Source: an uncultured delta proteobacterium (GTDB lineage Bacteria; Desulfobacterota; Binatia; Binatales; Binataceae). From it: a stretch of DNA of 64,000 bases. The stretch covers positions 864,001-928,000 of the forward strand of contig CAVRVY010000001.1 of NCBI GenBank assembly GCA_963724765.1, given 5' to 3'. The position numbers and the translations under genes are program-made. The notes under the pieces are model-generated. The model saw nothing but the letters and a program-made list of their open reading frames with translations. It had not been told where the DNA came from and searched no databases. Numbering within the stretch: the first letter of the stretch is position 1; each line of letters starts with the position of its first letter. Shown piece after piece: positions 1 to 18,500 of the stretch.

Positions 1-2095
1 CCGCGTAGGAGCGGTACTTGTCGATGATCGGCTTGAGCGCCGCGTACGAGCCCTGGACCCCGAGCGTAACGCGATGCGATTGCCCGGGCGCGAGCATCAG
101 GCCGTCCAGCATCAGGCCCGGAGTCGGAGAGCTGCGCAGCAAGGGGCCTCCTACCCAGTTGGGCGGCAGCAAGCCCGCCTGCTGGGCGGCGAGAGGAGAC
201 AAATCGGCGAGCCGGTGGCCGCCGGCGACGTAGCTGTAGGCCGCGGCGAGCAGAGTGTCGAAGCGGACGGCCGCGGCGCGCGCCTGGAGCATGACCGGAT
301 CCTCGCTGGGCCATTGCGATCGTATTTGCGCCGGGAGTTTGTAAAGCGTGACGCCGCCGACGTTTTGGGCCGGGACGTCGAGGCCGTCGAGAATTATCTT
401 CCACACCTCGCGGTCGCGCGGCGCGATCGGACCGCGATGCCAGATGCCCGGGCCCCAAGCATGGCTGACCTCGATTGCGTGGTCGCCCTCGCCGGCGAAG
501 ATCACCGCGTCCACGTTGTGGCTCTTGAGGAAAGCCCTGAACTGGCCGCCCGCATCGGGAATCGGCGCAACGTCGTACAGTGCGTCGACGATCGGCCAGC
601 GCTCGTACTCGGCGGGAATCGGCGGCGCAAATCCGGTGTACCCGCCCGCCATCCGGAAATGGAACGCGCAGAGCGCCTGCCACAGCATCCCGTCGCCCTC
701 GAACCCGTACGGCAGGATGACCACCGTTTCGCCCGGGTGGAGATACTGTCGATAGAGCCCGGCGGAAAAGAATTCGGGCGTCGCCATCGTCGTGGCCCAG
801 AACGAAGCGTCGAGGCTCGGCAGAAGCGAAAGCGCGATCAGCGTCCCCGCGAGCCATCTGGGAGCTGCGCGATTCGGCGCGCGGGGCGACCCGGTGCTCA
901 TCCACATCGCGCACAGAATCGCGATGGCGAGGAACATGTAGACCGTCAGCCGCGCCGGCATCGCCTTGGCGATGAGCGGCAAGGTTGAAACGAGCATCCA
1001 GGGCATCGGCACGATGAAACAGCCGCCCACCTGCATCCACGATCCCATCGCGAGCACGCCGATCGCCGCGGCAAACAGGATTAGCAGCCGCACCGCGGGC
1101 TCGTGCCACCTCCGCCATGCCATCGCGATTGCGACTACCAGCGTCAGGCCGAGATAGGCGTCGGTGTCGTAGATCCCGGCGCGGAAGTTCATTGAGATGG
1201 CGCGCATCGCGTCGAGGCGGCCAAGCGCGTTAGTGGGCACGGGCACCACAAAGTTGAGCAAATCGATCGAGCCGGTGTTGGTCGACCAGATCGTGCCATG
1301 GGGGAAACCGAAGGCGAAGAGATAGTAGAGATAAGGCGCAAGCAGAAACATCGCGAGCGCATAGCTGAGCGCGATCGGCGCGATGAGGGCGCGGACACGG
1401 CCGCGATCGCTCTCGCCGGTCACCAGCAGCGCGATCGCGATCGCAATCGCAGCGCTCATCGTCATCGTCGCGAAGGTCTCGATGAAGAGCAAAAATTGCG
1501 CGCACAGTACCAGCGCGAGCAGCATGATGAAGGTTCGCCGGCGGATGCTTGCGTCCAGCGCACGCAAGGTCAGGTACACCGCCAGCGGCAGCATCGGGAC
1601 CATCGCAAGATCGACGTCGCCGAGCAGCTTGCAAAGCAGGTACGGCGAAAAGCCGAAGACGAAACCGCCGAGCAACGCCGGCGCGAACTCGCGCACGATG
1701 TGCCGGCAAAGTATGAACGTGGCCCATCCAACCACCGCCGGGCAGAGCAGGCAGAGGATGTTGTAAGTGGCCACCGCACCCAGCGCGTGAGTGACCGGAA
1801 GCATCAACCACGCGGCGAGCGGGATGTTGGTCGTCCAGGCGAGATTGAAGCCGGCGGGCGCCCACACCGCGTGCGTGAAGAGCGGGTTGACGCGAGCAGC
1901 CAGCGCGTGCGCCCACCAGGCCAGGAACCAGATCGATTGCGGCGGGTCGGGACCGTTGCCGACGTAGAATGAAGACAGGCCGCCGCCTAGCGCGCGCCCG
2001 AAAAAGAGCACCGAGAACGCCAGGTAGATGAGCAATGCGGCGGCCCCGCCGCGCCATCCCGGCGTGCCCGCCGAGACTTCGCCGGATGCGCTCAT
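1..2095 (-). CDS. GT-C/YfhO-like polytopic membrane glycosyltransferase, paralog copy 1 (3' end beyond window)
   Basis: Not in the ORF track because the frame has no stop inside the window. Manual translation from ATG 2095 (ATGA overlap with the copy 2 stop) gives MSASGEVS...GNGPDPPQSIWFLAWWAHA...NPLFT..VWAPAGFNLAWTT...MLWQA..FRMAGGY...VTLGVQGSYAALKPIIDKYRSYA, the same motifs as the other copies. Confidence 0.8.
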   Translation of the reverse strand, partial: MSASGEVSAGTPGWRGGAAALLIYLAFSVLFFGRALGGGLSSFYVGNGPDPPQSIWFLAWWAHALAARVNPLFTHAVWAPAGFNLAWTTNIPLAAWLMLPVTHALGAVATYNILCLLCPAVVGWATFILCRHIVREFAPALLGGFVFGFSPYLLCKLLGDVDLAMVPMLPLAVYLTLRALDASIRRRTFIMLLALVLCAQFLLFIETFATMTMSAAIAIAIALLVTGESDRGRVRALIAPIALSYALAMFLLAPYLYYLFAFGFPHGTIWSTNTGSIDLLNFVVPVPTNALGRLDAMRAISMNFRAGIYDTDAYLGLTLVVAIAMAWRRWHEPAVRLLILFAAAIGVLAMGSWMQVGGCFIVPMPWMLVSTLPLIAKAMPARLTVYMFLAIAILCAMWMSTGSPRAPNRAAPRWLAGTLIALSLLPSLDASFWATTMATPEFFSAGLYRQYLHPGETVVILPYGFEGDGMLWQALCAFHFRMAGGYTGFAPPIPAEYERWPIVDALYDVAPIPDAGGQFRAFLKSHNVDAVIFAGEGDHAIEVSHAWGPGIWHRGPIAPRDREVWKIILDGLDVPAQNVGGVTLYKLPAQIRSQWPSEDPVMLQARAAAVRFDTLLAAAYSYVAGGHRLADLSPLAAQQAGLLPPNWVGGPLLRSSPTPGLMLDGLMLAPGQSHRVTLGVQGSYAALKPIIDKYRSYA

Positions 2096-4308
2096 TGCGC
2101 TGCCCCGTCGGCCGCCGCTGAAGAACTTTCGTTGCGCGCTCGTGCCGCTGCGCGCGCGAGGCCTTCAGCGTTGAAGGTCATCACGAGCCGTCCTCGAAGA
2201 TCGTCTTCCCCGCCGCGCGCCGGCTGGTCCAGGTCGCGGGGCACAAAGCCGATCGCATCGGCTCGATAATCGCTCAGCACCGCGCGCAACGCCGGATACC
2301 AGCCGGCCACGCCGACCTCGATACGGCCCTGCTCGTCGACGGCGAGCCACATGTCGTCGAGCTGATGCGGATCGTTCGCGTGGCGCGGCAGATTCAGCCC
2401 GCCTTGGTCCCACGGCGGCTCGGTCTTTTTCGGCACGACAATCCATCCGGACGGCATCAACCCCAGCTTGCGAACTTCGGCGGGAGTTAACGCGGCTAGT
2501 GGGCGTCCGTCGTGCAGGTAACTCTCGGCCGCGAGCACGAGCGCCGCGAAGCGCGCCTTGTCCAGGCGCGTTTCCATCGCGAGTGCGGTCGCGTTTTGCC
2601 AGGGAGCGAGTTCCGCTGGTGTCGTGCGATAGACCGTCATCCCGCCCGCCTCGATCGGCGCCGTGCCCAGCGTCGCCATCAGCGGACGCCATACCTCAGC
2701 TTCGCGATCGTCGACCAGGACAGCGGTGGCGCGATGGGTGGCGAGGAAAGCCTTGAGCTGATCGCCGGCGGCGGGAAGCGCGACCGTGCCGACGCGATAG
2801 AAGACCCGCACTATCGGCCATTGACGAAACTCAAGCGGCGGGTTGCCCGCATAGCCCCCCGCCATTCTGAAATACCAGTCGCTTTGAAGTTGCCACATCA
2901 TGCTGTTGCCATTGATGCCGTAAGGCAGCACCACAACCGTCTCTGCGGGCGAGAGATATTTCGCGTAAAGTGCTTCGCGGAAAAAGTTCCGTACGTCGAT
3001 CGCGGACGTCCAGAAGCTCGCGGACAGATTTGGCAGCATCGATGCCACCACTACAAGCGCCGCCACCACGCGGACCCATCGCGATGTGGCGCCACTGTTA
3101 AGCCATAGGGCTGTGATGATGGCTAGCGCGAGGAAGGCGTACAGCATCAGGCGCACCGGCAGCGCCTTGCCGATAAGCGGCAGTGCGCTGACCGCGAGGC
3201 CCGGGAGCGGAATAATCGGCCGCCCGCCGACGACCAGGAACGGTCCGAGCGAGAGCACGACGGCGACGATCAGCACCAGCACGAGCGAGCGGGCCCATCC
3301 TTCGTTCCAGTGACGGCGCGCGAACATTGCGGCGACCAGCATCAGCGGAATGCCGATATAGCCGCCGGCCTCGAAGATAAAGCCGAGAAAGTGCTGCGCG
3401 ATCGCGTGCAGTGGGGCTGCGCGGCCAAGCTCCATCGTGGAGGTCGGGATCACCAGGTTGAGCAGATCGCTCGAGTAGAGCAGCGGGGGATGCTGCGTGC
3501 CGGGTTCATAGCCCAGAGCGACCATGAAGTAGAAGAGCGGGCTCAAAGACACCAATGCGATCACATAGCTGAGCGCGACGGTCGGCAGAAGATTCACCGC
3601 TCGCGTTTTCTCGGCGCTCGAACCGGCCACCAGCACCACGATGAACGCGATGCCCGTGAACAGGGTCATCGTCGCGAACAGCTCGATGAACATCAAAAAC
3701 TGTGCGACCAGCACGAGCGCCAGCCCGGCGACCAGCGCCCGCCACGCGATATCCGCCCGGAAACCCCGAATCAGCAATAACGTGAACAATGGGATTGGAA
3801 AGATCAGCAGCAGATCGAGGTGAGCAAGGGTCTGGCCGAGCATGTAGGCGGAAAAGCCGAGGATGTAGCCGCCAACCAGCGACGCGCAATACGCGCCGGT
3901 CAGGTAGCGGCACAGAACGAACGCGGTCCAGGCGGCCAGTGCGATCGCGAGCAGGCAGAGCAGGTTGTAGATCGCAATCGGTCCCGTGATAGTGGCCGGC
4001 GCGGCCGCGATCAGGCTCGCCAGCGGCATCGAAGTGGCCCAGGCGAGATTGAGACCGTGCGGAGCCCAAATCGCGTCGGTGAAAAGCGGATTGAGACCAT
4101 GCGACAGGGCATGCGGCCACCACGCCATCAGCCACATCAACTGAGGTGGATCGACGCCCTTGCCGATATAGGCAGTCGAGAAGCGCCCGTCCAGGCCGCG
4201 GGCGAAAAAGAGCGCGGCCAGCACGAAATAGAAGGCAAGTGCGCAGAGACCTCGAAGGTCGAACGCCGAGCGCGGTCGCCGAATCCTTTCTGCCATCGAT
4301 GCCACCAT
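2092..4308 (-). CDS. GT-C/YfhO-like membrane glycosyltransferase, paralog copy 2
   Basis: C-terminal ~740 aa of ORF 2092..4809; likely start ATG 4308 or 4296. Many TM helices; GKGVDPPQLMWLMAWWPHA, NPLFT..WAP.GLNLAWAT, WQ..SDWYFRMAGGY. Confidence 0.8.
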   Translation of the reverse strand: MVASMAERIRRPRSAFDLRGLCALAFYFVLAALFFARGLDGRFSTAYIGKGVDPPQLMWLMAWWPHALSHGLNPLFTDAIWAPHGLNLAWATSMPLASLIAAAPATITGPIAIYNLLCLLAIALAAWTAFVLCRYLTGAYCASLVGGYILGFSAYMLGQTLAHLDLLLIFPIPLFTLLLIRGFRADIAWRALVAGLALVLVAQFLMFIELFATMTLFTGIAFIVVLVAGSSAEKTRAVNLLPTVALSYVIALVSLSPLFYFMVALGYEPGTQHPPLLYSSDLLNLVIPTSTMELGRAAPLHAIAQHFLGFIFEAGGYIGIPLMLVAAMFARRHWNEGWARSLVLVLIVAVVLSLGPFLVVGGRPIIPLPGLAVSALPLIGKALPVRLMLYAFLALAIITALWLNSGATSRWVRVVAALVVVASMLPNLSASFWTSAIDVRNFFREALYAKYLSPAETVVVLPYGINGNSMMWQLQSDWYFRMAGGYAGNPPLEFRQWPIVRVFYRVGTVALPAAGDQLKAFLATHRATAVLVDDREAEVWRPLMATLGTAPIEAGGMTVYRTTPAELAPWQNATALAMETRLDKARFAALVLAAESYLHDGRPLAALTPAEVRKLGLMPSGWIVVPKKTEPPWDQGGLNLPRHANDPHQLDDMWLAVDEQGRIEVGVAGWYPALRAVLSDYRADAIGFVPRDLDQPARGGEDDLRGRLVMTFNAEGLARAAARARNESSSAAADGAAQ

Positions 4309-4325
4309 GAGCGCGCGTGGGCGGA

Positions 4326-6575
4326 TCAGCGCGGCGCGCTCGACTGGGTCCGCCCGCCGTAGGTGGCATCCGGCGCGGAGCCGGTACTTGCGAGGGCGCG
4401 CGCCTGGCGAGCGGCGCTGGCGAGCCCGCTGCGGTCGAACGTCATCACCATCAGTTCCAGTTCTTGTTCGCCACCAGGATTTTCGGCGGTCACGATCGGT
4501 GTTGCGCGGATTTTCAGCGCGTCGTCCCGATACGTCGCGCTCAAGGCGGAGAGCGCACCGCGCGAGCCGAAAGTCCCGACGTCGATTGTGCCGCCGCGAT
4601 GGCTTTGCGCCCAGAGCCCGTTGGAGATGCGGATGCTGGGACCGCCCAGCCAGTCGTCGCGAATAAAGCCTGCCTGCTCGAGGCGCTTTGGGCTGAGTTG
4701 AGCCAAATCGGCGCCGCTCTGAACGTATTGATCGACGGCGTCGAGCAGCGCGCCGAATCGTGCCAGGTCGACACGGCGTTCGAGGTCGAGCGGCTTCAGA
4801 TCGCGCCAAGGGGCGAGCGCGGCGGGCGTAAAGCGATAGATGAGAACTCCGCCAGCCATAGCCGGCGCGGGACCCAGCGCGGCCAGCACGGTGCGGTACT
4901 GCTGGCGCTGCTGCGGGTCCGGACTATCCTTGATGGAGGCGTCGAGCAGCGCGGCGGTCACCTGATGAGCCGCCAGAAACGCCTTGACCTGCAATTCCGG
5001 ATCGGGGAGATAACTGCCGTTGAATAGCGCGACCATCGCGGGCCAGCGCTCGAACTCCGCCGGCGGCGGCCCGGTCCATGCGCCGGCCATGCGAAAGTAC
5101 ATGTCGCTCTGCGCCTGCCACATCAGGCTGTTGCCCCGCCATCCGTAGGGCACCGGCAGTACGATTTCAGTGGGCTGCAGATAATCGCGGTACGCGCCAC
5201 TTAAAAAAAACGGTGGCGTATCAACCGGCGTGTCCCAGAATGTTGAGGACAGACGCGGCATCGCGAACAACACTGCGGCGAGCGCGACGGTATACTTGAC
5301 CGCGATGGAGGCGCTACTCGAGGCGAGCCACATCGCGACGATTAGCCCAGCGAGAAATGCAACATAGAGCGTGAAGCGAACGGGCATCGCGTTGCCGATA
5401 AGCGGCAGCACGCCGAGTAGCGCTCCTGGCATTAGCATAAGTCGGCGACCGCCGACGCTAAGCCATGGACCACAGGAAAGGATGGTGGTGATCAGCATCA
5501 TCCACAGCAGGAGCCGGGTACGCGCCTCGCGCCAACGCCGCCACGTGAAGACGGCGATGATCGCGAGCAGCACCGGGCCGAGGTAACAGAAGCCGACGTA
5601 GGTTACGGTGCTTGGCACCCGCTCGAACGCTTGCGCCACCACGCCAAGGCGGGCGAGTTCGCCCGTCCACGAGGGCAGTACGAGGAAGAGCAGATCGGCG
5701 CTGAATAGGAACGGCTGCCACATCGGGGCCTTGGGCGCCGCCGTGGAGAAGAAGAAATAGAGGTAGGGCGAGACCACGGCCAGCGCGATGACGTAGCTGA
5801 TGACAATCGGCATGATCAATGCGCGCAGGCGCCGGCGCCGGCGCGTATCGCTTTCGAACAGGATGAATGCAAGCGCGAATGCAATCCCGCTGACGATCGT
5901 GGCCATCGCAAAGACTTCCAGCGAGATCAGAAATTCTATGACCAGCATGGATGCCAGCGCTCCGACGAAGCCTTGCGGCCCTATCTCATCGTTGAACGCG
6001 CGCAGCACGAACCACAGTGACAGGACGATCGGGAAAACCAGCAGAAGCTGCGGGTCACCTTCCCACAGCCAGTGGATCATGTAGCCCGAGAAACCGAACA
6101 AGTATCCGCCAATCAGCGATGCCCACCACGATCCAGTGACATAGCGGTAGAGCACAAACGTGCTCCAGGCGCTGAGCGGAAGCGCGAGCAGGAATACCAC
6201 GTTCAGGGAGGCGACCGGCCCCAGCGCACGGGTGATCGGCGCCAGTATCAGGCCGATCAGCGGCATCCAGGTCGTCCACGCCATATTGAACGTCGCCGGC
6301 GCCCATAACAGATTCGTATGGAAAGGATTTATGCGATGCGCGACCGCATGCGCCAGCCACTGCAAAAACCACGCGATCAGTGCGGGATCGCCCACGGCCT
6401 TGCCCACGTGCCGAGTGGTGAAGTGTCCGACGAGGCCGCGTCCGAAGAACAGCATCGACAACGCGAGGTAGACGCCGAGCGCGCCCAGTCCGTAGCGATC
6501 GCGAGCCGACGCCCGTTTTATCGCAGCCGCCGGCGGATGACAGTCGCGGGCGGGCGCGTCAAGCGATGCGCTCAT
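4326..6575 (-). CDS. GT-C/YfhO-like membrane glycosyltransferase, paralog copy 3
   Basis: 749 aa; GDPALIAWFLQWLAHA, NPFHT..WAP.TFNMAWTT, MWQAQSDMYFRMAGAW. Start overlaps the methyltransferase stop (TGATG). Confidence 0.8.
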   Translation of the reverse strand: MSASLDAPARDCHPPAAAIKRASARDRYGLGALGVYLALSMLFFGRGLVGHFTTRHVGKAVGDPALIAWFLQWLAHAVAHRINPFHTNLLWAPATFNMAWTTWMPLIGLILAPITRALGPVASLNVVFLLALPLSAWSTFVLYRYVTGSWWASLIGGYLFGFSGYMIHWLWEGDPQLLLVFPIVLSLWFVLRAFNDEIGPQGFVGALASMLVIEFLISLEVFAMATIVSGIAFALAFILFESDTRRRRRLRALIMPIVISYVIALAVVSPYLYFFFSTAAPKAPMWQPFLFSADLLFLVLPSWTGELARLGVVAQAFERVPSTVTYVGFCYLGPVLLAIIAVFTWRRWREARTRLLLWMMLITTILSCGPWLSVGGRRLMLMPGALLGVLPLIGNAMPVRFTLYVAFLAGLIVAMWLASSSASIAVKYTVALAAVLFAMPRLSSTFWDTPVDTPPFFLSGAYRDYLQPTEIVLPVPYGWRGNSLMWQAQSDMYFRMAGAWTGPPPAEFERWPAMVALFNGSYLPDPELQVKAFLAAHQVTAALLDASIKDSPDPQQRQQYRTVLAALGPAPAMAGGVLIYRFTPAALAPWRDLKPLDLERRVDLARFGALLDAVDQYVQSGADLAQLSPKRLEQAGFIRDDWLGGPSIRISNGLWAQSHRGGTIDVGTFGSRGALSALSATYRDDALKIRATPIVTAENPGGEQELELMVMTFDRSGLASAARQARALASTGSAPDATYGGRTQSSAPR

Positions 6576-7243
6576 CAGGCGGCCTTCTCGAGCAGCCAGT
6601 TGAAATACAGCGGCAGACCGGGAACCAGGCGCAGCCGCGCATGCCGCGTAACCCGCAAGCCATTGCGATTGAAGGCGTTGGCCACGGCCCGCGGCGTGGT
6701 CACATGGTGGTGGTCGATACTCTTAAAGCCGATCGCGCGAAAGCCCAACTCCATCATCGTGTTTACCGCCGGCATGCCGAGAAGAAAACGGCCACCCGGC
6801 CTGAGCACACGCGCGACCTCGCTCAGTCCCTGCTCGTACTGAAGTAGATGCTCGAAGACAGAGAAGCTGAGCGCCAGGTCGAACTCCGCGTTTTCGTAGG
6901 GCAGTTTATATACACTGCCCCGGATGAGCGTGGCGGTGCGCCCGTGGCTGCCGAGCCACGCGTGCACGGGGGCCGGGTCGGCGTCGAGATCGATGCCGTG
7001 CAGTTCGTCGACGCTGGCGGCGATCGCGAGCAGCACCGCGCCTGCGCCATATCCGATCTCGAGCGCCCGGGCGTAGCGGCGATCGGCGATCATCCGCAGT
7101 CCGAGATTGATCCGTTCGCGAAAGAATCGCCCGATGAGCGGCCGTCTGTAGTAGGCGATCGGATCGGTCGGGCCATTGGGGACGAGGCCCTCCAACAGGC
7201 TCGGAGTCAGTTGTAAATCAGCTTGAGGGCGGTCGTGTGTCAC
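6575..7243 (-). CDS. Class I SAM-dependent methyltransferase (Methyltransf_11-like)
   Basis: LEIGYGAG motif I, GIDLD, LPYENAEFDLALSFSVFEHL, EVARVLRPGG. Likely start GTG 7243; the ORF-track extension overlaps copy 4. Confidence 0.85.
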   Translation of the reverse strand: MTHDRPQADLQLTPSLLEGLVPNGPTDPIAYYRRPLIGRFFRERINLGLRMIADRRYARALEIGYGAGAVLLAIAASVDELHGIDLDADPAPVHAWLGSHGRTATLIRGSVYKLPYENAEFDLALSFSVFEHLLQYEQGLSEVARVLRPGGRFLLGMPAVNTMMELGFRAIGFKSIDHHHVTTPRAVANAFNRNGLRVTRHARLRLVPGLPLYFNWLLEKAA

Positions 7244-7259: not shown

Positions 7260-9572
7260 TCATCGGATCTCCTGAGGGTTTGACGGCGTGACGCCTGAAG
7301 CGAGCGCCTCAGACGGCGCCACCGCTGATTCGTGCGGCCCTTCCTCGCCAGTGGCGGCCACTTCGGCCGCGCGAGCAAGCCCCCTGCGGTCGAATTCCAT
7401 AACCATCATTGCCGCGTCGTTGGTCGAGTTCGCGGCCGGCGGCGTCAGGCGCGAGGGGTAGGGGAAATAGATCGTTGAGGCCTGGGCGCTGTAGCGATCG
7501 ATTGTCGATTTCAGCGCCGCGTAGCTGCCCTCGATTCCGACCTCGATAGTGCTGCTCTTCGACACACTGAGAATCGATTCAACATGGAAAATCGGATTAC
7601 CGACGTGGTCGTGGCTGGGAAAGGGCTCGCCGCCGAACCAGTCGAGCGGCACCAGTCCAAGTGCTTGAACCGCTTGGGGTGTCAGCTTTGCCGGATCGCG
7701 GCCTTGAGCAAGATATCGCTGTGCCGCGAGCACTAGCGTTTCGAAGCGCGCGCGTGCGGCGCGCTGCTGCATCTCGAGAGCGGTCAATCGGCGGTACGGA
7801 GCGAGCGTTTGCGGCGCGATCCGGTACAAGGTGATGCCGCCCACCTCGAGCGATGGCGTATCCAGCGAGGCGAGCAGCTTGTCCGTCGCGATATGCTCCC
7901 GGTCAATCGTCGGCCATCGCAGCCACGTCGCGGCAGTGCGCAGACTGCCCAGGCGCAGAACGAGATATTGAGTGCGTGGTCCGACGATTACCGCACTGAC
8001 GTTATGGTTGGCCAGGTAAGCCTTCAACTGATCTCCCGCATCGGGCACGCCGGCGATGCTGTAAAGTCCGGACATAATCGGCCAGCCGCTATCCTCTTCG
8101 GGCATCGGCGGTGCGAGCCCTACGTACCCGCCCGCCATCCGAAAATACATGTCGGTGGTCGCCTGCCACAGCATCCCTTCGCCGAACAATCCAAAAGGCA
8201 GCACCAGCACGGTCTCGCCGGGCGCGACGTATTGGCGATAGACACCACTGCCGAAAAACGCGGGGATTTCGGCCGGCGTGGTCCAGAACGAAGGCGACAA
8301 GTTTGGCAGCATGAACGGGATGATCGCCAAGCCGAGCGTCCAGCGCCAGGCATTACGTCTGTCGTCGCTGTTCTTTCGATCTGAGGCGAGCCACATCGCG
8401 ACGATCACCGCCATAGTCAGGTAGGCGTATATCATGAAGCGCGAGGGCAGCGCTTTGTCGAGAAGCGGTAACACGGTCAGCGCCGCGGCCGGAAGCGGCA
8501 GAAGGCGGTAGCCTGCGATTTCGAGCAAAGGCCCCAAAGCGAGAACGCAGGCGATCGCAAGCATAGAAATCATGAATCTGCCGGTACGATCATGCCATCG
8601 CTCTCGCGCGAACAGCGCGATTATCACAAGCAGCGGCAGGCCCATATATCCGCTGGACTCGGAAAGTTCGGCGAGGAATCGGCGCGCGATTGTACCGCTT
8701 ACCGCAAGGCTGCCGAGCTCATTCGAACTGGTCGGGACAAGGAAGTTGGCCAGGTCAATGGAAATGCGCCAAGGCGAAAAAATCACTCCGTGCGGCGTTC
8801 CAAATGCGAACATGTAGTAGAGATAGGGCAACAGGACCACTGTACTTATGGCGTAGGCCACGATGATCGACGACGCCACCGAACGAAGACGCGTCCACTC
8901 CTCGGCAGACGCGGACCGGGCGGCCAATGCGAAAGCGATCGCGCCGACGAACGCGGCGGTGGCGAACACTTCGGGCGACATCAGGAACTGCGCAAGCAGC
9001 AGCGCCACCACAATGGCCACGAAGCTCCGCGTCTTGAGCTCGCCCGCGAGACGGCGCAACGTCGCCCAGACCGCCAGCGGGAGCGGAAAAACCAGCAGTA
9101 GGAAGACGCTGCCCAGCATTCCGGTCAGCATCGATGGCGAGAAGGCGAAGAGCCACCCGCCGAGCCAGGCCGGCCAGAAGCGATGAACGATGTAGCGGCA
9201 GAGCACGAACGCCGACCATCCTGTGAGCGCCGGCGTGATCAGATGCAGGAGGTTGCAGGCGACGATCGGTCCCCACAGCCGCGTAATCGGATAGAGCGCG
9301 CAACTGGCCAGCGGAAAATCGGTGGTCCACGCAAGGTTGACGCCCGAGGGCGCCCATACCAGCGCGGTAAGAAATGGGTTGAGGCGATGCGAGACGGCGT
9401 GAGCCCACCAAGCCAGGAACCAGATGTATTGTTGCACGTCGGGCCCGCGGCCAACGTATGCGGACGCCGGATGAGCGAAGACTCCGCGCCCGAAGAACAG
9501 GACCGACAGCGCCAGATAAGATAGGAACGCAGCCCCTCCTCGGCGGTCGAAAAGTTGAGCCGCGGGTCTCAT
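7260..9572 (-). CDS. GT-C/YfhO-like membrane glycosyltransferase, paralog copy 4
   Basis: 770 aa intact; GRGPDVQQYIWFLAWWAHA, WAPSGVNLAWTTDFP, MLWQATTDMYFRMAGGY. Confidence 0.8.
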   Translation of the reverse strand: MRPAAQLFDRRGGAAFLSYLALSVLFFGRGVFAHPASAYVGRGPDVQQYIWFLAWWAHAVSHRLNPFLTALVWAPSGVNLAWTTDFPLASCALYPITRLWGPIVACNLLHLITPALTGWSAFVLCRYIVHRFWPAWLGGWLFAFSPSMLTGMLGSVFLLLVFPLPLAVWATLRRLAGELKTRSFVAIVVALLLAQFLMSPEVFATAAFVGAIAFALAARSASAEEWTRLRSVASSIIVAYAISTVVLLPYLYYMFAFGTPHGVIFSPWRISIDLANFLVPTSSNELGSLAVSGTIARRFLAELSESSGYMGLPLLVIIALFARERWHDRTGRFMISMLAIACVLALGPLLEIAGYRLLPLPAAALTVLPLLDKALPSRFMIYAYLTMAVIVAMWLASDRKNSDDRRNAWRWTLGLAIIPFMLPNLSPSFWTTPAEIPAFFGSGVYRQYVAPGETVLVLPFGLFGEGMLWQATTDMYFRMAGGYVGLAPPMPEEDSGWPIMSGLYSIAGVPDAGDQLKAYLANHNVSAVIVGPRTQYLVLRLGSLRTAATWLRWPTIDREHIATDKLLASLDTPSLEVGGITLYRIAPQTLAPYRRLTALEMQQRAARARFETLVLAAQRYLAQGRDPAKLTPQAVQALGLVPLDWFGGEPFPSHDHVGNPIFHVESILSVSKSSTIEVGIEGSYAALKSTIDRYSAQASTIYFPYPSRLTPPAANSTNDAAMMVMEFDRRGLARAAEVAATGEEGPHESAVAPSEALASGVTPSNPQEIR

Positions 9573-9673: not shown

Positions 9674-11931
9674 TCACTTACCGGTATCGCGCTTCTGCGG
9701 CGTCGGAGGGAAATCAGCGGCCTGGCGCCGCGTCGCCAGCGCGGCGGCGCGCTCCAGCCCTGAGTGATCGAACGTCATCACCATCATTGCCGGATCGCGC
9801 GGCATCGAAGCGGGCGAAAGCGGAACAGGATAAGGAAAATAGATTTGACTGGCATTAGCACGGTAGGTCCGGATCGTCGACTCGAGCAAATCGTACCGGC
9901 CCTCGATTCCCACCGCTATAAGGCCGGCCTGCGATGGGCCGAGGACAGCTTTGAAATGAAAATAATGAGGATTGGCGTTCGTCTCTGTGAATACCGCGCC
10001 ACCGAACCAGTCACCTGGCAGCAGGCCGAGTTGTTGGGCCCGTTCCGGGCTGAGCGAGGCGAGGTCGCCGCCGAGAACGAGGTAGCGCTCGGCTGCGAGC
10101 AGTAGCGCTTCGAACCGCGCGCGGTCCATGCGTCGCTGCATGTCCAGCGCGGTCAGATCGCGATAAGGAACGAGAGTCTGTGGTGAGATCCGGTATAGCG
10201 TAACGCCTCCGATATCGATCGGCTGGGTGTCCAGGGAGGCGAGCAGCTTTTCTGTCGGAACACGCTCCCGATCAATGGTTGGCCATAGCAGCCAGTTATC
10301 AATGACGCGCCGACCGCCCATGCGCGCGACCAGATAGTAGGTACGAGATCCAACTATAATCGCGCTCACGCCGTGGTTGGCGAGATAAGCCTTCAATTGA
10401 TCACCGGCTTGGGGCACACCAGCAACGTTATAAAGCCCCGCCATGATCGGCCAGCCGCTATGCCCCTTGGGTATCGGAGGTGCATAACCGGCGTAGCCGC
10501 CTACCGTTCGGAAATACATGCCCGTTACTGCCTGCCACAGCATCCCCTCGCCGAGATATCCGAAGGGCAGTGTCGCAACAGTCTGGCCCGGAGCGATGTA
10601 TTGGCGATACAGACCGCTGCTGAAGAAGACGGGAACCTCGACCGGTGTTGCCCAGAACGATGCAGACAGGTTGGGCAACATAAACGGAATGATCGCCAAG
10701 CTGAGCGTCCAGCCCACCATTCGTCCCCCGCTCTCTCGACTCAACCACATGGATATCAATACGGCTGCCGCCAGGTAGGCGTATATCGTGAAGCGCCCGG
10801 GCAACGCTTTTTCGAGCAGTGGTATAGCCGCAAGCGCCGCACCCGGAAGCGGCATGATGGCGTGGCCGGCGATTTCGAGAAACGGCCCCATCGCGAGAAT
10901 GCAGGCGCAGGCGAGCATACATATCACGTATCTGCCGACGCGGTCGTGCCAGCGTTCACGCGCGAACAGCACGATGATCGCCAGCAGCGGAAGTCCAAAG
11001 TAAGCGCGGCTCTCCGACAGGTCCGCGCGAAAATAAGAGGCAATGGCGTTGAACAGCGGCAGGCGTCCGAGTTCGTTGACGTTGGTTGGTACGAGAAAAT
11101 TCTAAAGTCCGCTGCGTTGTTTTTGGGCGATAAAATGGTTCCCTCCGGCATCCCGAACACCAGCATGTAATACAGATAGGGCGACAGGATGACCGCACTG
11201 ATTGCGTATGCCGCGCCGATCGACCATGCCGCCGACACAATCCGTCCGTACTCGTCAGGTGAGGAGGCCGTGCGCGCGGCAAGCGTGATCGCGATCGCGC
11301 CGAAGAGTGCGGCGCTGGCGAAAATCTCGACTGACAGCAGAAACTGCGCGATCATCAGCAGCGCCAACAGGGCTACGAAGCTCCGCGCTTTCAACTCACC
11401 GGCGAGGCGTCGCAACGTGCCCAAACCAGGAGCGGTACCGAAAACACCAGCATGAGGAGTCCACCACCGATCATCGCGGTCAACATGTAAGGCGAAAAAG
11501 CGAAGAGGCATCCACCAAGCCACGCTGGCCAGAAGCGCCGTACAACTTCGCGGCGCAGGCACGAATGCGGACCATCCCGCAAGTGGCAAACCGATCAAAT
11601 GCGCGACATTGCAGGAGACGATCGGCCCATATCAAGCCGCGTAACCGGATAGAGCAGACAGCTAGCCAACGGAAAATCAGTGGCCCAGGTCAGGTTGACG
11701 CCCGAGGGAGCCCATATTGCAGTGGTCAGGACCGGATTCAGACGATGCAGAATGGCGTGCGCCCACCAGGCCACAAACCAGATGTTCTGTACCGCGTAGG
11801 GCCGCGGCCGAGATAGGCGGCCGCCGGATCGGGCGAGCACGCCACGTCCGAAGATGAGGAGTGACAACGCCAGGTAGGATAGAAATGCACTCACGGCCTG
11901 GCGGCCAGATAGAAACCGTGGGTGCCGTCAT
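9674..11931 (-). pseudogene. GT-C/YfhO-like paralog copy 5; 5' half frameshifted several times
   Basis: Homology is split over ORFs 11677..11931, 11595..11894, 11391..11582, 10924..11598 and 9674..10972. The C-terminal 432 aa are intact and closest to copy 4. Confidence 0.75.
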
Positions 11932-13591
11932 TTCCCTCGGATCGATAAGTCCAATCGGCCTCCGCGGCTTGTTTCGCTTCGCTTTCGCTTCAACATCGTC
12001 TGAGCCTGCTTTGTCATCGGATGTCCTGTTTCAGTGGCCGACTGCACGCGTCGACGCCGTAGGAACCAAATCAGCTTCTGCTGCTGTATCGTTGCCGCCG
12101 CGGCGTGCTCCAGTCCCGCATGATCGAACGTCATCACCATCATCGCGGGCTCGCGCGGCACCGAAGAAGGCGAGAACGGCTGAGCGGTAGCGGCCTCGAC
12201 CCTGTCTTCCATTCCAGCAGCCAGCTTGGCCTTGGCGCCGAACGCTCCTGAGCGAAGGCCGCAATCCTGCAGCCCTCAGCCCCCAGGGTTTCGCCCAAAA
12301 ACTCGGACAGACTGCTCGCCTCCTTAAATACCCAACCACTCGAGATTGGCGGCATCACGCTCTACCGAGTTGCGTCACAGAAGCGGATTATCGGCTCGAG
12401 CGGGGTGGCCGTCGAACTGAGGGCCCGTACGAGGCTCTCGCCCCGTACCGTAACTTGACTGCGCTCGAGATGCAGCAGCGCGCCTCCGTGTACGTTATGG
12501 TCGGCCAGCGCACCGTGGTCGCCACAACGGGCTGATTTCCTATGCGCAGGACCAGATAGTAAGAGCGAGATCCGACGACAATTGCGCGTACGTCGTGATT
12601 GGCCATGTAGGCCTTCAGCTGGTCGCCAGCCTCAGGCACTCCGAGGTCATTGTACAACCCTGTCATGATCGGCCAGCTTCTATGCTCGGCCGGCACCGGC
12701 GGTACGCCTGACGAATAACCTCCAGCCATCCGAAAATACATGTCGGTTATTGCCTGCCAGAGCATTGCTTCGCCGAGATATCCATAGGGCAATACCATCA
12801 CGTTCTCGCCAGGAACAATATATTGACGATAAAGGCCGCTGCGGAAGAACTTCGGAACCTCGGCGGAGGTTGTCCAGAACGACGCGGACAGATTGGGTAG
12901 CATGAATGGAATGATCGCTAGGCCGAGTCCCCATCGCAGCTCTTTTCGCCCGCTCTCGTCAGCAAGACACGTTGCGACTATTATGGCGAGTGCTAGGTAG
13001 GCGTATGGCATCAGGCGTCCAGGCTGCGCCGTGTCTATTAGCGGCAAGGCCGCAAGGGCCGCGCCCGGAAGTGGCAAGACACGGTAGCCCAGGATCTCAA
13101 GTAGAGGTCCCATCGCGAAGATGCAGGCGGCCGCGAACATGGACACCATGAATCTGCCCCCCGCGGTCGTGCCAGCGCTTACACGCGAACAGCGCGATGA
13201 TCGCGAGCATCGGTAAACCTATGTAGCCGCCGCTATCGTAAAGGGTCGCAATAAACCGATGCGTAGTGGCCCGAAACAGCGGAAGGATACGATCGGCCCC
13301 CACAACCGAGTAACCGGATAGAGGAGGCACGCTGCCAGAGGAAAGTCGCAAGCCCAGGCAAGGTTGCCGCCAGAGGGTGCCCAGACCACCTTGGGTAAGA
13401 GAGGATTCAGATGATGCGAAAGGGCGTGGGCCCACCAGGCCAGAAACCAGATGTAGACCTGCGGGTCTGGCCCCTGACCGATATAGGAGCTCGCCGGATG
13501 GACAAGCACGCCGCGCCCGAAAGATCAGGACCGACCCTGCCAGATATGACAGAAACGCAGCGCCGGCATGGCTTCGCGTCTGCTTGTGCAT
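11928..13591 (-). pseudogene. GT-C/YfhO-like paralog copy 6; internal deletion, frameshifts and scrambled 3' part
   Basis: Starts MHKQTRSHAGAAFLSYL (ATG 13591 after GGAGG). GQGPDPQVYIW in 13219..13509. Jumps from GPIVS directly to LPLFRATTHRF near 13285, losing several TM helices. 12388..13149 is the middle; 12198-12487 is inverted and shuffled; the PREPAMMVMTFDH tail lies in 11928..12212. Confidence 0.75.
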
Positions 13592-13702
13592 CCTCCAACT
13601 CCTACGCAATCAATCCGCCCCGCTGCATCTCCGAGGACGCGCGCTCCGCCGGATGTCAAATCACTTTCCGTAATCTCTTGGAGCGGTAATGGGCCGTCTC
13701 GT

Positions 13703-13731: not shown

Positions 13732-13733
13732 CT

Positions 13734-16057
13734 TTACAAGGCGAGATTGATGCATAAGGGCGGCGGATTTCGGAGGGGGGCGTGGTCTATCGAGTCACGG
13801 GGGATGCTGGCCGGTAACAGCAATGTCGGGTCCGCGTCCTGATGGGCGGCTGATGCGGCAGCGCGGGCGAGGCCAGCGCGGTCGAACGTAATCACCATCA
13901 TTGCCGGTCCGCGCGGGGTCGAAACCGGCAACCAGCGGCGTCGGGTATGGAAAATAGATTCGAGTAGCATCGGCGCGGTAGCTCTGTATTATCGGCTCGA
14001 GCGCATCGTACGAGCCCTCGATTCCCACCGCTGTCCCATCCGGCTGCGCGGGGCCGAGAACAATGCTGGAATGAAAGATCGGGTTGGAGTCGCCGGCGCC
14101 GGGCAGCGCTCCACCGAACCATCCTTGCGGTAGCAGGCCGAGTTGCTGCGCACGTCCGGGGCTGAGCGATGCGAGTTCGCCGCCCATGTCCAGATAGCGT
14201 TGAGCGCCGAACAGCAGTGCCTCGAACCGGGCCAAGTCGGCGCGCTGCTCCATCGCGAGCGCGGTCAGCTTGCGATACGGCGCAAGCGTTTGCGGTGTCA
14301 GTCGATAAAACGTGACGCCGGCAGCTTCGATTCCGGCCACGCCCAGTGAGTCCAGCATCGCTAAAGTCGCGTCGCGCTCGGGCGCGAGTGTCGGCGCTCG
14401 CAGCCAAGTGGTGGCGGTGCGGCGTCCGCCGATCGAGCCGACGCGGTACTGACGGCGCGGTCCGCCGATGACGGCACCGACGTCGTGATTAGCCAGATAC
14501 GCTTTCAACTGATCGCCGGCCGCGGGGACACCCCTTATCTGATACAGCCCCGCAATAATCGGCCAGCGGCTATGTTCCTCGGGCACTGGCGGCGCGAAAG
14601 TCACGTAACCCTCCGCCATCCGGAAATACATACCGCTCACCGCCTGCCACAGCATCCCTTCGCCCAGTATTCCATAGGGCAGCACGATCACGGTCTCGCC
14701 CGGCGCGAGGTATTGGCGATAAACGCCGGCGCTGAAGAAGGCGGGTAATTCGGCCGACGTTACCCAGTACGATGCCGACAAATTGGGGAGCATGAATGCC
14801 ACGATCGCGAGTCCGAGCGCCCAGCGCAGTTTCTTCTTGCGCTGTCCTCGGCGAGCCACATCGCGACGATCACGGCCAGCACCAGGTACGCGTACAACAT
14901 GAAACGCGCGGGCAGCGCCTTGTCGAGCAGCGGCAGGCGAGCGAGTGCGGATCCCGGAAGACCCATAACTATTCGTCCGGCGAATTCGAACCGGGGCCCC
15001 ATCGCAAGCACGCAGACCACGATCAGAAGATGGACGAGGAATCTACCGCCCGGCGCATTCCAACGCTCGCGCGCGAAAAGAATCACGGTCGCAAGCAGGG
15101 GCAGCCCGAGGTAGGCGCCGGTCTCGGCCATCTCGGCGCGGAACTGATGCGCGATCGGAGCGAAAAGCGCCACCCGGCCAAGCTGATTGACCGTGGTCGG
15201 GATAGCGAAGCTCGTGAGGTCGATCGCGAAATGCCAGGGCGAGAAAATTTCTCCAGGCGCAGTCGGGAAGGCGAACATGTAATAGAGGTACGGCGAGACG
15301 ATGACCGCCGCGACCGCATAAGCGGCGGCGATAAGCGTCGCGGTCGCCAGCAGGCGGCGGCGCTCTGGTGGCGCCATTGCGGGCGTCGCGAGCAAAAACG
15401 CGATCGCTCCAAACAGCGTGGCACTGGCGACTATCTCGGCGAACAACAAAAACTGTGCGGCGATGAGAATCGCGAGCGCTGCCACGAAGCCCTGCGCGCC
15501 CAGGTTGCCGTCATCCGCCGCAGCGTCACATACGCGCCGAGCGGTATCGGCCACATCAGAACCAGGTCCATGTTGCCGAGCATCCGGCTCAACACATACG
15601 GGGAGAAAGCGAAGAGCAATCCGCCGAACATCGCCGGCCCCCATCCACCCACGACGTAACGGCAGAGCGCGAACGCACTCCATCCCGCGAGTGCCGGCGA
15701 CAGCAGGCAGAGCAGATTGTACGAGACGATCGGCCCGAAGGCGCGCGTGATCGGATATACCAGCCACGCCGCGAGCGGCATGTTGGCCGTCCAGGCGAGA
15801 TTGACGCCCGAGGGAGCCCAGATGACGCTGGTCAGAAATGGATTGAGGCCGTGCGAGATCGCATGTGCCCACCAGGCCATGAACCCGATGTATAGCTGCG
15901 GATCGGGTCCACGGCCGACGTAGACGGTCGCCGGATGGCCGATGATGGCGCGACCGAAAATGAGCAGTGACAGTGCGAGGTAGAGCAAAAATGCGCCTGC
16001 GGCCTGACGGTCGAAGAGGCGGCGAACGCGGGTTAATTCTTTGGCTTCTTCGGTCAT
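13734..16057 (-). pseudogene. GT-C/YfhO-like paralog copy 7; about three frameshifts
   Basis: Continuous homology across ORFs 15431..16057 (GRGPDPQLYI), 14760..15872, 13795..14859 (MLWQAVSGMYFRMAEGY) and 13734..13970 (PAMMVITFDRAGLARAA). Confidence 0.75.
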
Positions 16058-16111
16058 CCTGAGCGAAGCGAGTCTGCGAATCGACTCCGGCAGCCTTCGC
16101 TCAGGATGACC
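16052..16111. repeat. REP-like palindromic element, copy A
   Basis: Perfect 17-bp inverted repeat GGTCATCCTGAGCGAAG...CTTCGCTCAGGATGACC; related copies at 45127 and 53984. Confidence 0.8.
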
Positions 16112-16232: not shown

Positions 16233-18500
16233 TCAGCGCGGTGTCAATGTAGCCGAAGAATTCGAGTCGATAGTAGATGTGGACTGATTCGAATGAGATT
16301 TGGAGTCGAGATCGAGCCGCGGCGGCTCTGTGAGCGCCAATGCGGCGGCGCGAGCGAGTCCCTGACGATCGAAGGACATCATAAGTGTGTAATAGTACAC
16401 TCCAGCCGCGGCGAATAAAGTTTCTTTCGGCCGCAAGCGGGAAGGAAAATAGATACGTCGCGCGTACCCACCATAGCGATCGATTAACGGGCGCAAGGCA
16501 GTGCGGGATCCCAACAGCCCGAGCGTGATGATGCCGTCGGGTTCAACGCGCATATACAGTCGATAGTCAGTTGCTCGCGATGGCCTCGGCAGCCAGGCGG
16601 CCGGCAAACGTCCCAGCTTCGCGGCGCTTGTGGGTGAAAGCCCGGCAGGGTCGGCGCCCGAGGCGAGGTAGCCTTGCGCGGCGATCAGCAGCGCGCCGAA
16701 CCGTTGCGCATCCGCCAGCGTTTCCATCCGCGTCCAATCAAGTCCGCGGTAAGGCGCAAGCGTTGCGGGCGGCACGCGGTATAGCGTGATACCGCCCGCC
16801 GCGATCGCCGGCGTGCCCAGCGCCTCAACGATCGGTTCGATTGAAGGAAAATAAACCGGCATGGGATTGTTGACCATAAGGACCGCCGTCACCTGATGGC
16901 TGGCGGCAAAGGCTTTCCACTGATCGGCCGGGTCTGGAATCGTCGCGAGCTGATTGGCAGAGCGGACGATCGGCCATCGAAGATAAGACACAGGGCTGAG
17001 CGGCGGGTATCCGCCGGCCAGGCGAAAGTACATCCCGCTCAGCGCCTGCCACATCATACAGGCGTCGGCCTCGCCCCACGCATACGGCAGCGTCGCGACG
17101 ACCTCGCCCGGCGCAAGATACTGCCGGTAGATCCCGGTCGTAAAAAAACCCGGCGACGGCGCGACACTGTTGGGCTCGGCCCAAACCCGTGCCGACGGGT
17201 TGGGAAAGAGCGACACAAACACCAACCCGCCGGCGATGGCACGCGTCAACGCGCCGCGGTCCGGCGCCGCCAGCCACCTCGTGGCGAGGACGGCCAGCGT
17301 CAGGAACAGGTAAACGGTGAAGCGCAGCGGCAGCGCCTGATTGATTAGCGGCGTGCGATGGAGCAGCGACCACGGGAGCTTAAAGTAGATGTTGCCGGCC
17401 AGGTGGAGCCGCGGACCCATTGCCGCCACCGCCGTGACTATCAGCATCAGGCCGAGCAGTCTCGCCTCCAACGTGCGCCGGCGCTCGAGCGTAAACCAAA
17501 TCGCGATCGCCAGCAGCGGCAATCCAACATAGGCGGCCTGTTCGGCGACGCCGCTGGTGAAGCCGGCGGAGGCGCGGCGAAAGAGCCCGATCGCCGATCC
17601 TAGCGCGACCGTCCTGGTGGGAACCAGGAAATTCAACAGATCGGTGGAGTGCCAGCTCGGCGAATAGATCGGAGTCGTGCGAAAACCGGCGAACAGGTAG
17701 TACAGGTACGGACCGACGAGTATGGCCGTGCCCAGATAAGCGAAAAAAATCGGCACCGCCAGCTCCGCGATACGCCGGCGCAGATCGCGCTCGCCCATCG
17801 CCCACGCCCCTGCCAGCGCAAGCGCGCCGAAGATAGTCATCGTGGCGAGAATCTCAGTCGCGATCAGAAACTGCGCCGTCGTCAGCGCGAGCAATCCCAG
17901 CGTGAAGGTGCGCCTTTCGATGCGCCGCTGCAGTCGCGCCAGTACCAGGTAAACGGCGAGCGGGATGAGGAACGCCGCGAGCAGATTCAGATGCCCGCCG
18001 AACATCTGCGCGAGCATGTAGGAGGAAAAACCGAAGATGTAACCGCCCAGCAGCGAAGGCTCTAAGCGTTCGGTGAGACTGTGGCAAAGCAGGAATGCGG
18101 TCCACGCCGTGAGTGCGGGACATGCGACGCAGAGCAGGTTGAAAGCCGTAATCGGCCCCACGGTTGCGGTCAGCGGCAGCGCGAGCAGGCTTAGCAGTGG
18201 AATCGAGGTCGACCAGGTCAGATTGAAACCGGCGGGCGCGAAGATGAGCTTGCTGATGAACGGATTGAGATGATGGGCGATCGCGTACGGCCACCATACC
18301 AGGCACCAGATGAAGAAGGCCTGATCGATCCCGCGTCCCAGGTAGATGGTGGTGAAGTGAGACGCGTCGGCGCGCGCGAACAGCAACGCCGAGAAGCCCA
18401 GGTAAATAATCAGCGCTGCAAGGCGCGGCCGGCTCTTGACCGCCGCGGCGAGCGCCGCGGAAATGCTTCGCTGGCGCGAGTCGGCCTCCATCACCGGCAC
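16233..18500 (-). CDS. GT-C/YfhO-like membrane glycosyltransferase, paralog copy 8 (first in transcription order)
   Basis: 755 aa; GRGIDQAFFIWCLVWWPYA, NPFISK.IFAPAGFNLTWSTS, GGHLNLL, MWQALSGMYFRLAGGY. Confidence 0.8.
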   Translation of the reverse strand: MPVMEADSRQRSISAALAAAVKSRPRLAALIIYLGFSALLFARADASHFTTIYLGRGIDQAFFIWCLVWWPYAIAHHLNPFISKLIFAPAGFNLTWSTSIPLLSLLALPLTATVGPITAFNLLCVACPALTAWTAFLLCHSLTERLEPSLLGGYIFGFSSYMLAQMFGGHLNLLAAFLIPLAVYLVLARLQRRIERRTFTLGLLALTTAQFLIATEILATMTIFGALALAGAWAMGERDLRRRIAELAVPIFFAYLGTAILVGPYLYYLFAGFRTTPIYSPSWHSTDLLNFLVPTRTVALGSAIGLFRRASAGFTSGVAEQAAYVGLPLLAIAIWFTLERRRTLEARLLGLMLIVTAVAAMGPRLHLAGNIYFKLPWSLLHRTPLINQALPLRFTVYLFLTLAVLATRWLAAPDRGALTRAIAGGLVFVSLFPNPSARVWAEPNSVAPSPGFFTTGIYRQYLAPGEVVATLPYAWGEADACMMWQALSGMYFRLAGGYPPLSPVSYLRWPIVRSANQLATIPDPADQWKAFAASHQVTAVLMVNNPMPVYFPSIEPIVEALGTPAIAAGGITLYRVPPATLAPYRGLDWTRMETLADAQRFGALLIAAQGYLASGADPAGLSPTSAAKLGRLPAAWLPRPSRATDYRLYMRVEPDGIITLGLLGSRTALRPLIDRYGGYARRIYFPSRLRPKETLFAAAGVYYYTLMMSFDRQGLARAAALALTEPPRLDLDSKSHSNQSTSTIDSNSSATLTPR

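Follow-up and report, generated by a model that had tools for sequence, protein, structure and literature searches.

A tandem array of predicted GT-C-fold membrane proteins with an embedded methyltransferase in an uncultured Binataceae bacterium

Introduction

In mycobacteria, several GT-C glycosyltransferase paralogues (embCAB and others), partly arranged in tandem, act successively on one polymer using polyprenyl-phosphate monosaccharides. Here we analyse a stretch of 64,000 nucleotides (C1:864001-928000, hereafter the window) from the 5.4-Mb genome (four contigs, 97% complete) of an uncultured soil bacterium of the Binataceae. Eight homologous units, A to H, all on the minus strand, fill positions 1-18500 of the window, as judged from the open reading frame (ORF) list and from tblastn of D against window positions 1-19000. 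Five of the eight are open copies (A, B, C, D and H; 738-770 amino acids), and a methyltransferase gene is embedded among them. To our knowledge, eight to ten GT-C genes in one co-oriented array are more than in any described set.

The Emb proteins are among the fold matches of the array proteins, but their structural similarity is weaker than that of AftD or the oligosaccharyltransferases (OSTs); moreover, embCAB comprises three tandem genes rather than 8-10, and the host here is an uncultured member of the Binatota. The best-aligned solved structure is that of AftD, the mycobacterial arabinofuranosyltransferase (PDB 6w98, PF11847), in which an N-terminal GT-C membrane domain is likewise followed by large extracytoplasmic domains. 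AftD differs, however, in its length (about 1,300-1,400 amino acids with several carbohydrate-binding modules, versus about 750 here), shares only 13% sequence identity and uses decaprenyl-phosphate arabinose as its donor, and PF11847 matches nothing in this genome.

The YfhO/CsbB/GtcA systems of Firmicutes follow the same logic as that proposed below. In these systems, the C55-P-sugar is made by a GT-A enzyme and moved by a flippase, after which a GT-C enzyme, which has 8-13 transmembrane (TM) helices and carries an acidic motif in a loop on the outer side, transfers the sugar outside the cytoplasm (PMC8035078). YfhO is also the only Pfam family giving any signal with the array proteins, but here its score stays below the cut-off, no GtrA was found in the genome, no GT-A gene adjoins, and eight tandem GT-C genes take the place of one. 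The three-component pentofuranose system of GT136 in Citrobacter O antigens combines a GT-C carrying a C-terminal acceptor-binding module with a polyprenyl-phosphate sugar synthase (PMC11127046). Likened here by description only, it encodes a single GT-C at each locus and relies on another type of donor synthase. The present locus is set apart by its long tandem array, its conserved methyltransferase and the lack of donor-making or flipping genes at the locus.

Results and discussion

Predicted fold and conserved residues

We consider it likely that the array proteins are periplasmic GT-C-fold glycosyltransferases that use polyprenyl-phosphate sugars and have been expanded by gene birth and death. 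This reading builds on the fold, residue conservation, synteny, neighbourhood links and a gene fusion observed elsewhere in the family. An AlphaFold2 model of D computed from 111 sequences has a mean pLDDT of 91.1 and a pTM of 0.91, and comprises TM1 (residues 10-32), two loop helices (44-61 and 87-100), another ten TM helices, which reach residue 420, and a predicted periplasmic domain (427-741). Foldseek comparison of this model with the Protein Data Bank (PDB) gave 24 matches at E <= 1e-3, and among the matches listed all are GT-C enzymes, led by STT3 (5.1e-7) and followed by AglB, AftD, PglB, DPY19, AftA and ArnT, and then by Pmt4, ALG12, PimE and Emb. VIA-align yielded a Z score of 21.4 both to STT3 (8age_A; 454 residues aligned, root mean square deviation (rmsd) 4.9) and to AftD (6w98_A; 470 aligned, rmsd 4.2, model residues 9-684 against chain residues 8-700). 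Lower scores were obtained for AglB (18.6), DPY19 (18.4), PglB (17.9), AftA (16.6), Pmt4 (15.6), ArnT (15.4) and Emb (9.7-11.2). All VIA-align ranks from 1 to 40 (Z >= 7.6) are of GT-C type, and at rank 41 the score drops to 4.9. Language-model features (ESM Atlas) likewise place AftD nearest among named families (0.96). The earlier note, made from the letters of the window, had called these proteins GT-C-like, and the model of D does have the GT-C fold. The family most resembles AftD, the OST catalytic subunits (STT3, PglB and AglB) and YfhO. A GT-C fold for the array proteins is thus well supported by modelling, and would make the family an unstudied branch of a known kind of enzyme rather than a new kind of system.

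The OST subunits among the top structural scores suggest another function for the array proteins, namely transfer of a preassembled glycan from a polyprenyl-diphosphate carrier onto proteins, as by oligosaccharyltransferases of the STT3/PglB/AglB kind. Their alignments reach into the periplasmic domain, to about model residue 588, and residues 433-586 weakly match the C-terminal globular domain of AglB (3vu0_A, Z 4.4). However, OSTs are defined by a WWDYG-type motif, and WWD was found in none of the 111 family sequences. In addition, the monosaccharide transferase AftD scores equally with STT3, and the neighbours and the fusion partner described below are GT2 glycosyltransferases of the monosaccharide-phosphate-polyprenol synthase type. 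We know of no precedent for eight to ten OSTs in one operon, and we judge this alternative improbable.

In an alignment of the five open array copies with the intact copy found on contig C4, the other sequences are 39-49% identical to D. Invariant or nearly so are G41, D45, W51, W55, A59, N65-P66, A74-P75 and W82-T84 in the N-terminal part, and P459/G464, W469-Q470, F477-R478-A480-G481 and M725-F727...L732-A733-A735-A736 in the C-terminal part, so that the shared motifs of the earlier note hold across the alignment. D45, the one aspartate of a GxGxD-P motif, follows TM1 at a distance of 13 residues.

A topology with 11 TM helices, the N terminus inside and the C terminus outside was drawn by hand from hydropathy; it agrees with the AlphaFold2 helices, and its sidedness was assigned by the positive-inside rule. 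Over the 111 sequences, the density of lysine plus arginine is 0.183 in the loops called cytoplasmic versus 0.047 in those called periplasmic. D45 is conserved in 107 of the 111 sequences, E201 in 110, D273 in 103 and R378 in all of them. All four residues and the C-terminal domain are predicted to lie on the periplasmic side, and these densities thereby favour the proposal of the earlier note that the aspartate after TM1 and the C-terminal domain are extracytoplasmic.

The last small beta domain of D, at residues about 665-737 (window about 7360-7580), contains the MMVMxFD motif. In the PDB, a profile of the C-terminal domain gave only a weak match, which recurs over the three lipoyl domains of an E2 acetyltransferase (7b9k_A; overall E 3.8e-4, with an i-E of about 4-5 for each domain). 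This part of D may be a barrel-sandwich-like domain, or the lipoyl match may be due to chance.

Several results weigh against assigning the array proteins as transferases fed by polyprenyl-phosphate sugars. Loop 1 holds only one conserved acidic residue, that of GxGxD-P, and no DxD motif. None of six paralogues exceeded any family threshold in Pfam (build with PF19830.4). D did reach YfhO (PF09586) with 23.2 bits and E 2.7e-5 over residues 105-348 (model positions 91-322), which is below the 28.5-bit cut-off; the other five paralogues gave no YfhO signal, and 6 of 60 homologues showed sub-threshold matches of 15-23 bits in the same region. A profile of the family alignment matched no PDB sequence at E <= 10. 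By hhalign, the family gave a probability of 1.1% with an ArnT-like profile (25 sequences), a pairing that is insensitive and carries no weight. A neighbouring family of proteins of about 470 amino acids, described below, also scored only 0.3% against the ArnT-like profile, though the DE motifs were aligned, and the 0.3% obtained between the array family and these neighbours is equally insensitive and without weight.

Gene content adds to these points. The array neither contains nor adjoins a GT2, flippase or nucleotide-sugar gene, and the nearest ArnC-like GT2 genes (Table 1) are on other contigs or about 470 kb away, the one on C1 sitting inside an Arn-like cluster. GtrA (PF04138) has no match in the genome, against matches in 8 of 14 control genomes, a search that did not extend to other flippase types. 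The flippase of the GT136 system is not GtrA, so the lack of GtrA does not exclude such a system (PMC11127046). Finally, PIG-U-type non-enzymes are among the structural matches (Z 8.4-8.9), and a shared fold is no proof of catalysis.

These PIG-U matches, a loop 1 without a DxD pair and an array without a donor-making gene are what would be expected if the proteins had a GT-C fold but were not transferases, serving instead as a scaffold, lipid-carrier binder or chaperone, like PIG-U in the glycosylphosphatidylinositol transamidase. Yet D45, E201 and R378 are conserved in 107-111 of 111 sequences, and such charged residues within the membrane domain or at its edge are what an active site would be expected to show. 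Enzymes also stand far above PIG-U in structural score (Z 15-21 versus about 9), and both the fusion to a GT2 and the adjacency of GT2 genes in relatives favour an enzymatic role. A non-catalytic function appears to us very improbable.

Probable link to polyprenyl-phosphate sugars

One tie between a glycosyltransferase role of the family and polyprenyl-phosphate sugars comes from a gene fusion. A tblastn search of plasmid records with a representative of the short form of the family found a Streptomyces coding sequence annotated 'dolichyl-phosphate beta-glucosyltransferase' (814 amino acids; WP_329448944.1), which carries a GT2 domain (PF00535, E 1.7e-26) at residues 16-151, followed by a full family module. 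In hhalign, family columns 11-587 matched Streptomyces residues 249-813 with a probability of 99.9 and E 3.8e-35, with D45, E201 and R378 matched. A structure search in ESM Atlas found the same kind of GT2 fusion, with TM scores of 0.85-0.89 over residues 1-440.

We further examined 72 loci obtained by searching with the alignment of six paralogues; nearly all are Binataceae-type records of metagenome-assembled genomes (3 of 72 bear other names), and the set is uninformative on other phyla. By the filter used, a family ORF is present in 67 of the 72 loci. In 25 of 72 loci, a family member has a class I methyltransferase no more than two genes away. The same holds for a GT2 of 330-380 amino acids in 7 loci, and in 7 others such a GT2 stands further off within the same co-oriented cluster. 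A GT2-methyltransferase fusion of 510 amino acids is encoded in one locus. Three neighbouring GT2s were compared with NCBIfam. Two match PgfS and ArnC over their whole length (E 4e-65 to 7e-83 and 3e-37 to 6e-53), and the third matches over most of its length with E about 1e-12, all three scoring below the equivalog cut-offs. GT2s of this ArnC/PgfS-like kind make polyprenyl-phosphate sugars in multi-component glycosylation systems (PMC8035078). Because of the GT2 fusion and these GT2 neighbours in relatives, which bear on the matter indirectly, the donor of the array proteins is probably a polyprenyl-phosphate-linked sugar.

Within the window and for 20 kb to its left, no membrane-linked GT-A polyprenyl-phosphate-sugar enzyme was found. 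The earlier note had reported that the window holds neither a GT-A priming enzyme nor GtrA; this stands for the window, and for GtrA it extends to the whole genome.

A recurring cluster was observed in the Binataceae loci L051, L059, L062, L065, L070, L071, L075, L094 and L099. It is made up of a PMT_2 gene, an ArnC/PgfS-like GT2, one or more methyltransferases, a second, PMT_2/ArnT-like gene, a further methyltransferase and a family member, with not all genes present in each locus. Two kinds of GT-C thus share one donor-making enzyme in this cluster. The host genome keeps only the pair of PMT_2 and GT2, at C3:1450416-1452843.

Methyltransferase and proposed mechanism

The gene between C and D matches Methyltransf_11 with E 5.6e-16, bearing out the embedded methyltransferase of the earlier reading. 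Its start is likely the GTG at 7243, giving 222 amino acids, because orthologue alignments and the sequence itself favour this codon. As read from its translation, the protein has neither a signal peptide nor a TM segment. Three other genomes have the gene at the same place, between their C-group and D-group copies, and in relatives it adjoins, or is fused to, a cytoplasmic GT2. Given the lack of export or membrane signals and this GT2 adjacency and fusion, the methyltransferase most likely acts on the lipid-linked donor rather than on the finished glycan, which the earlier note had it cap.

From the observations above we infer a scheme that covers catalysis, donor type, flipping, acceptor and methyltransferase substrate and that builds on the inferred topology. 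A GT2 of the ArnC/PgfS/CsbB type on the cytoplasmic face would load a monosaccharide onto polyprenyl phosphate, where the conserved cytoplasmic methyltransferase would most likely modify the lipid-linked sugar, and this sugar would then be flipped across the membrane. The array proteins would transfer it to a periplasmic acceptor at a site composed of D45 (first outer loop), E201, D273 and R378, with the C-terminal periplasmic domain of about 330 amino acids holding the acceptor. Paralogues may differ in acceptor or linkage, and duplication and decay, chiefly of C- and D-subfamily copies, would make the array grow and shrink.

A bolder extension, which we regard as unlikely, is that the 8-10 DUF6311-type GT-Cs (see below), three GT-C-like neighbours and the methyltransferase form an extracytoplasmic assembly line, in which a partly methylated polymer would be built stepwise in the periplasm from polyprenyl-phosphate monosaccharides. 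If true, it would parallel the building of arabinan and mannan in mycobacteria, but in an uncultured phylum of Gram-negative type. Turnover of the C and D subfamilies would then change the polymer between species, resulting in surface variation under phage or predator pressure.

The long array hints at an extracytoplasmic glycan pathway in the Binataceae; in the main genomic survey of the phylum, none of the five cell-envelope and glycosylation terms searched for occur.

Family and distribution

NCBIfam gave no match for A, B, C, D or H. GT-C_AftD of Pfam (PF11847, cut-off 26 bits) has no match in the genome at E <= 0.01, a search in which a control Corynebacterium gives a match. For DUF6311 (PF19830; gathering cut-off 27 bits), the PF19830.4 profile matched none of the six paralogues at E <= 10. 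It also left all 80 homologues scanned without a match at E <= 0.01 and the whole genome without one at E <= 0.001. In contrast, precomputed annotation lists PF19830.5 for D and most homologues. ESM Atlas, compared with P0073 (a homologue 50% identical to D), names its clusters 'DUF6311 domain-containing protein', with 20-41% of members carrying DUF6311 and 80% in one related cluster. A newer Pfam build thus seems to cover the family as DUF6311, for which no function is described, and we found no paper containing the word DUF6311.

An exhaustive profile search returned 12,602 representative clusters (50% identity) at E <= 1e-3 and 2,670 at E <= 1e-30. The locus had been put forward as undescribed, which does not wholly hold for its protein family in view of this size and of the DUF6311 annotation. 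A long form of about 700-770 amino acids and a short form of about 560-600, which lacks the last ~170 residues, can be distinguished, and in 2 of 20 representatives the C-terminal part is replaced by a Redoxin/AhpC-TSA domain. Members are annotated at their source as 'hypothetical protein' or, for the Redoxin/AhpC-TSA fusions, as 'peroxiredoxin'. Because of the fold, the conserved residues, the neighbourhood and the GT2 fusion, this large family without assigned function gains a testable hypothesis, that of a GT-C transferase fed by polyprenyl-phosphate sugars, and culturable Actinomycetota carry the fused form.

At E <= 1e-10, the family occurs in all 24 other Binataceae genomes searched, with 3-19 matches per genome in 16 genomes of the genus versus 1-3 in 8 genomes of other genera. 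Among 16 genomes from other families of the class, one has a match. These counts agree with the lineage-specific expansion that had been suggested from the window. We built a FastTree tree of 37 rows with a midpoint root and Shimodaira-Hasegawa (SH)-like support values without bootstrap, from which ORFs under about 700 amino acids or lacking the FR[ML]AG motif were excluded. Each of A, B, C, D and H falls into a clade of its own together with its orthologues in other genomes, at an SH-like support of 100, and therefore the duplications predate the species of the genus.

The genus shares the gene order of the array. In genomes G010, G013 and G007, whose A orthologues are 72-84% identical to A, the order X genes, A, B, C(n), methyltransferase, D(n), H, DAHP synthase and RskA-like gene is kept. 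Ten copies are open in G010 (A, B, three C-like, four D-like and H), the additional D-like ones being the counterparts of units E, F and G in the window. In other genera, Candidatus Binatus among them, one or two copies lie at this site, flanked by DAHP synthase and NAPRTase, and one such locus has a GT2 and a methyltransferase just upstream. Fragmented copies occur in several arrays. The pattern is one of birth and death centred on the C and D subfamilies. Because independent genomes of the genus show the same order of genes again, it is unlikely that the array as a whole is an assembly artefact.

Broken copies E, F and G

The three units that are not open, all of the D subfamily, were examined by frameshift-aware alignment of protein to DNA, using four orthologues each for E and G and taking D and H as controls. 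E has indels at about 11830, 11795, 11632, 11559, 11420 and 11103 and is 77% identical (586/760) to its G010 orthologue. G, with indels at about 15512, 14835 and 13932, is likewise 77% identical (591/764) to an intact orthologue. No real frameshift event was seen in the controls (566/769 for D and 594/767 for H). A further frameshift in G, at about 14103, appeared with the G013 query only and was rejected as an artefact of the C-terminal frame of that orthologue itself. F lacks about residues 165-351 and 660-763 and contains a small inverted piece (12303-12487), with the C-terminal motif kept at 12078-12179; we read this copy as dead.

E and G may likewise be true pseudogenes, in a decaying array with five working genes, their frameshifts being neither assembly errors nor strain differences. 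The nine indels are concentrated in about 4.6 kb of E and G, with none in about 12 kb of A-D and H, and F next to them is structurally rearranged. The G+C content at third codon positions is lower in E, F and G (0.66-0.68; 0.76 in the N-terminal part of G) than in the open copies (0.74-0.85), and arrays of other genomes, for example G014, G013 and G004, also hold fragmented copies with stops. On the other hand, once corrected for frame, E and G have no in-frame stops, their 77% identity to intact orthologues is the same as that of intact D (74%) and H (77%), and four of the six indels of E form two nearby compensating pairs.

Read-level data bear on the same question. Logan contigs from four public DNA runs of one study, which contain 9-12% of the sampled words, were aligned to positions 9500-16300 and match the window exactly at many places there. 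They omit one base at 11558 (in two runs), two at 11632, one at 11830 and one at 13520. These differences coincide with three of the six sites in E and with one site in F, and each restores the frame; none of the contigs listed covers the E sites at 11795, 11420 and 11103 or any of the three sites in G. With the three E differences applied, the longest open stretch in 11380-11960 grows from 110 codons to 187, so that E is probably an intact gene, either in nature or in a closely related strain. Decay of both E and G is a real possibility but, in our judgement, a doubtful one. The indel pattern across E to G illustrates that apparent pseudogenes in long-contig genomes from metagenomes need checks at the level of reads.

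The differences between contigs and window cluster at 11500-11920 and 13520-13650, where indels are accompanied by neighbouring A/G swaps (for example at 11544, 11555 and 11558, and at 11907, 11908 and 11914/5). Such clusters suggest that, in this most variable part of the array, either the consensus is locally wrong or strains are mixed.

Locus layout and neighbouring genes

The units of the array and the ArnC-like GT2 genes of the genome are listed in Table 1. The array had been described as at least eight genes, open at the left edge of the window. Its character as a co-oriented run of paralogues is upheld, but there are exactly eight positions, of which one is a remnant (F) and two are frameshifted (E and G). 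The array is also closed on the left, 190 nt outside the window, since a search of the whole genome found no family copy further left of A. Both couplings noted before are present, an ATGA overlap at the stop of B and the start of A, and TGATG at the stop of the methyltransferase gene and the start of C.

Table 1 Units of the array (window coordinates) and ArnC-like GT2 genes of the genome (contig coordinates)
Feature	Coordinates	Strand	Length (amino acids)	Remarks
A	2095..-190	-	761	last gene of the array; last 63 codons and stop lie left of the window (C1:863811-864000)
B	4308..2092	-	738	ATG start at 4308
C	6575..4326	-	749	
Methyltransferase	7243..6575	-	222 (from the likely start)	class I, S-adenosylmethionine-dependent; between C and D
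D	9572..7260	-	770	copy used for the structure model
E	about 11930..9674	-		D subfamily; full length; 6 single-base indels, no in-frame stop
F	about 13612..12078	-		D subfamily; remnant of ~1.5 kb with internal deletions and an inverted piece
G	about 16084..13795	-		D subfamily; full length; 3 single-base indels, no in-frame stop
H	18500..16233	-	755	GTG start; first gene of the array
ArnC-like GT2	C3:1450416			adjoins a PMT_2 protein
ArnC-like GT2	C1:390686			inside an Arn-like cluster
ArnC-like GT2	C4:148546			adjoins a UDP-glucose dehydrogenase

Elsewhere in the genome there is one intact family copy, at C4:372814-375024. A tenth, fragmented copy was observed at C4:1086598-1091100, with two gaps of about 1.1-1.3 kb between the matching pieces that may be insertions. 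Scans for promoters and terminators showed no excess over shuffled sequence (5 sites versus 5.1, and 15 versus 16.6).

To the left of A, at window -4589..-230 (L013:15411-19770), three tandem genes on the plus strand, convergent to A, encode polytopic membrane paralogues of ~455-484 amino acids, which are 45-48% identical to one another and share an invariant DE-x-ASW motif after TM1. The second of them has a sub-threshold match to Pfam PMT_2 (E 9.4e-5), and these neighbours probably represent a second GT-C family. They are present beside the expanded arrays of the genus and absent from the loci with one or two copies in other genera.

Further left, at window -19237..-12502 (L013:763-7498), a group of minus-strand genes, with a small plus-strand ORF among them, encodes a GT21 glycosyltransferase, a B12-binding radical SAM protein, an LPG_synthase_TM-domain protein and an ArnT-like protein (PMT_2 plus Arnt_C). 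The group resembles a hopanoid-associated set of the hpnI-J-L type.

On the other side of the array, and 2.8 kb away from it, a complete rRNA operon (16S, tRNA-Ile GAT, tRNA-Ala TGC, 23S and 5S) occupies window 21280-26971 and accounts for the low-GC, high-skew stretch there. At window 50451-53803, three adjacent genes on the minus strand encode a GH1 beta-glucosidase, a glycosyltransferase resembling MGDG synthase and GT28 (weak matches) and a metallophosphoesterase.

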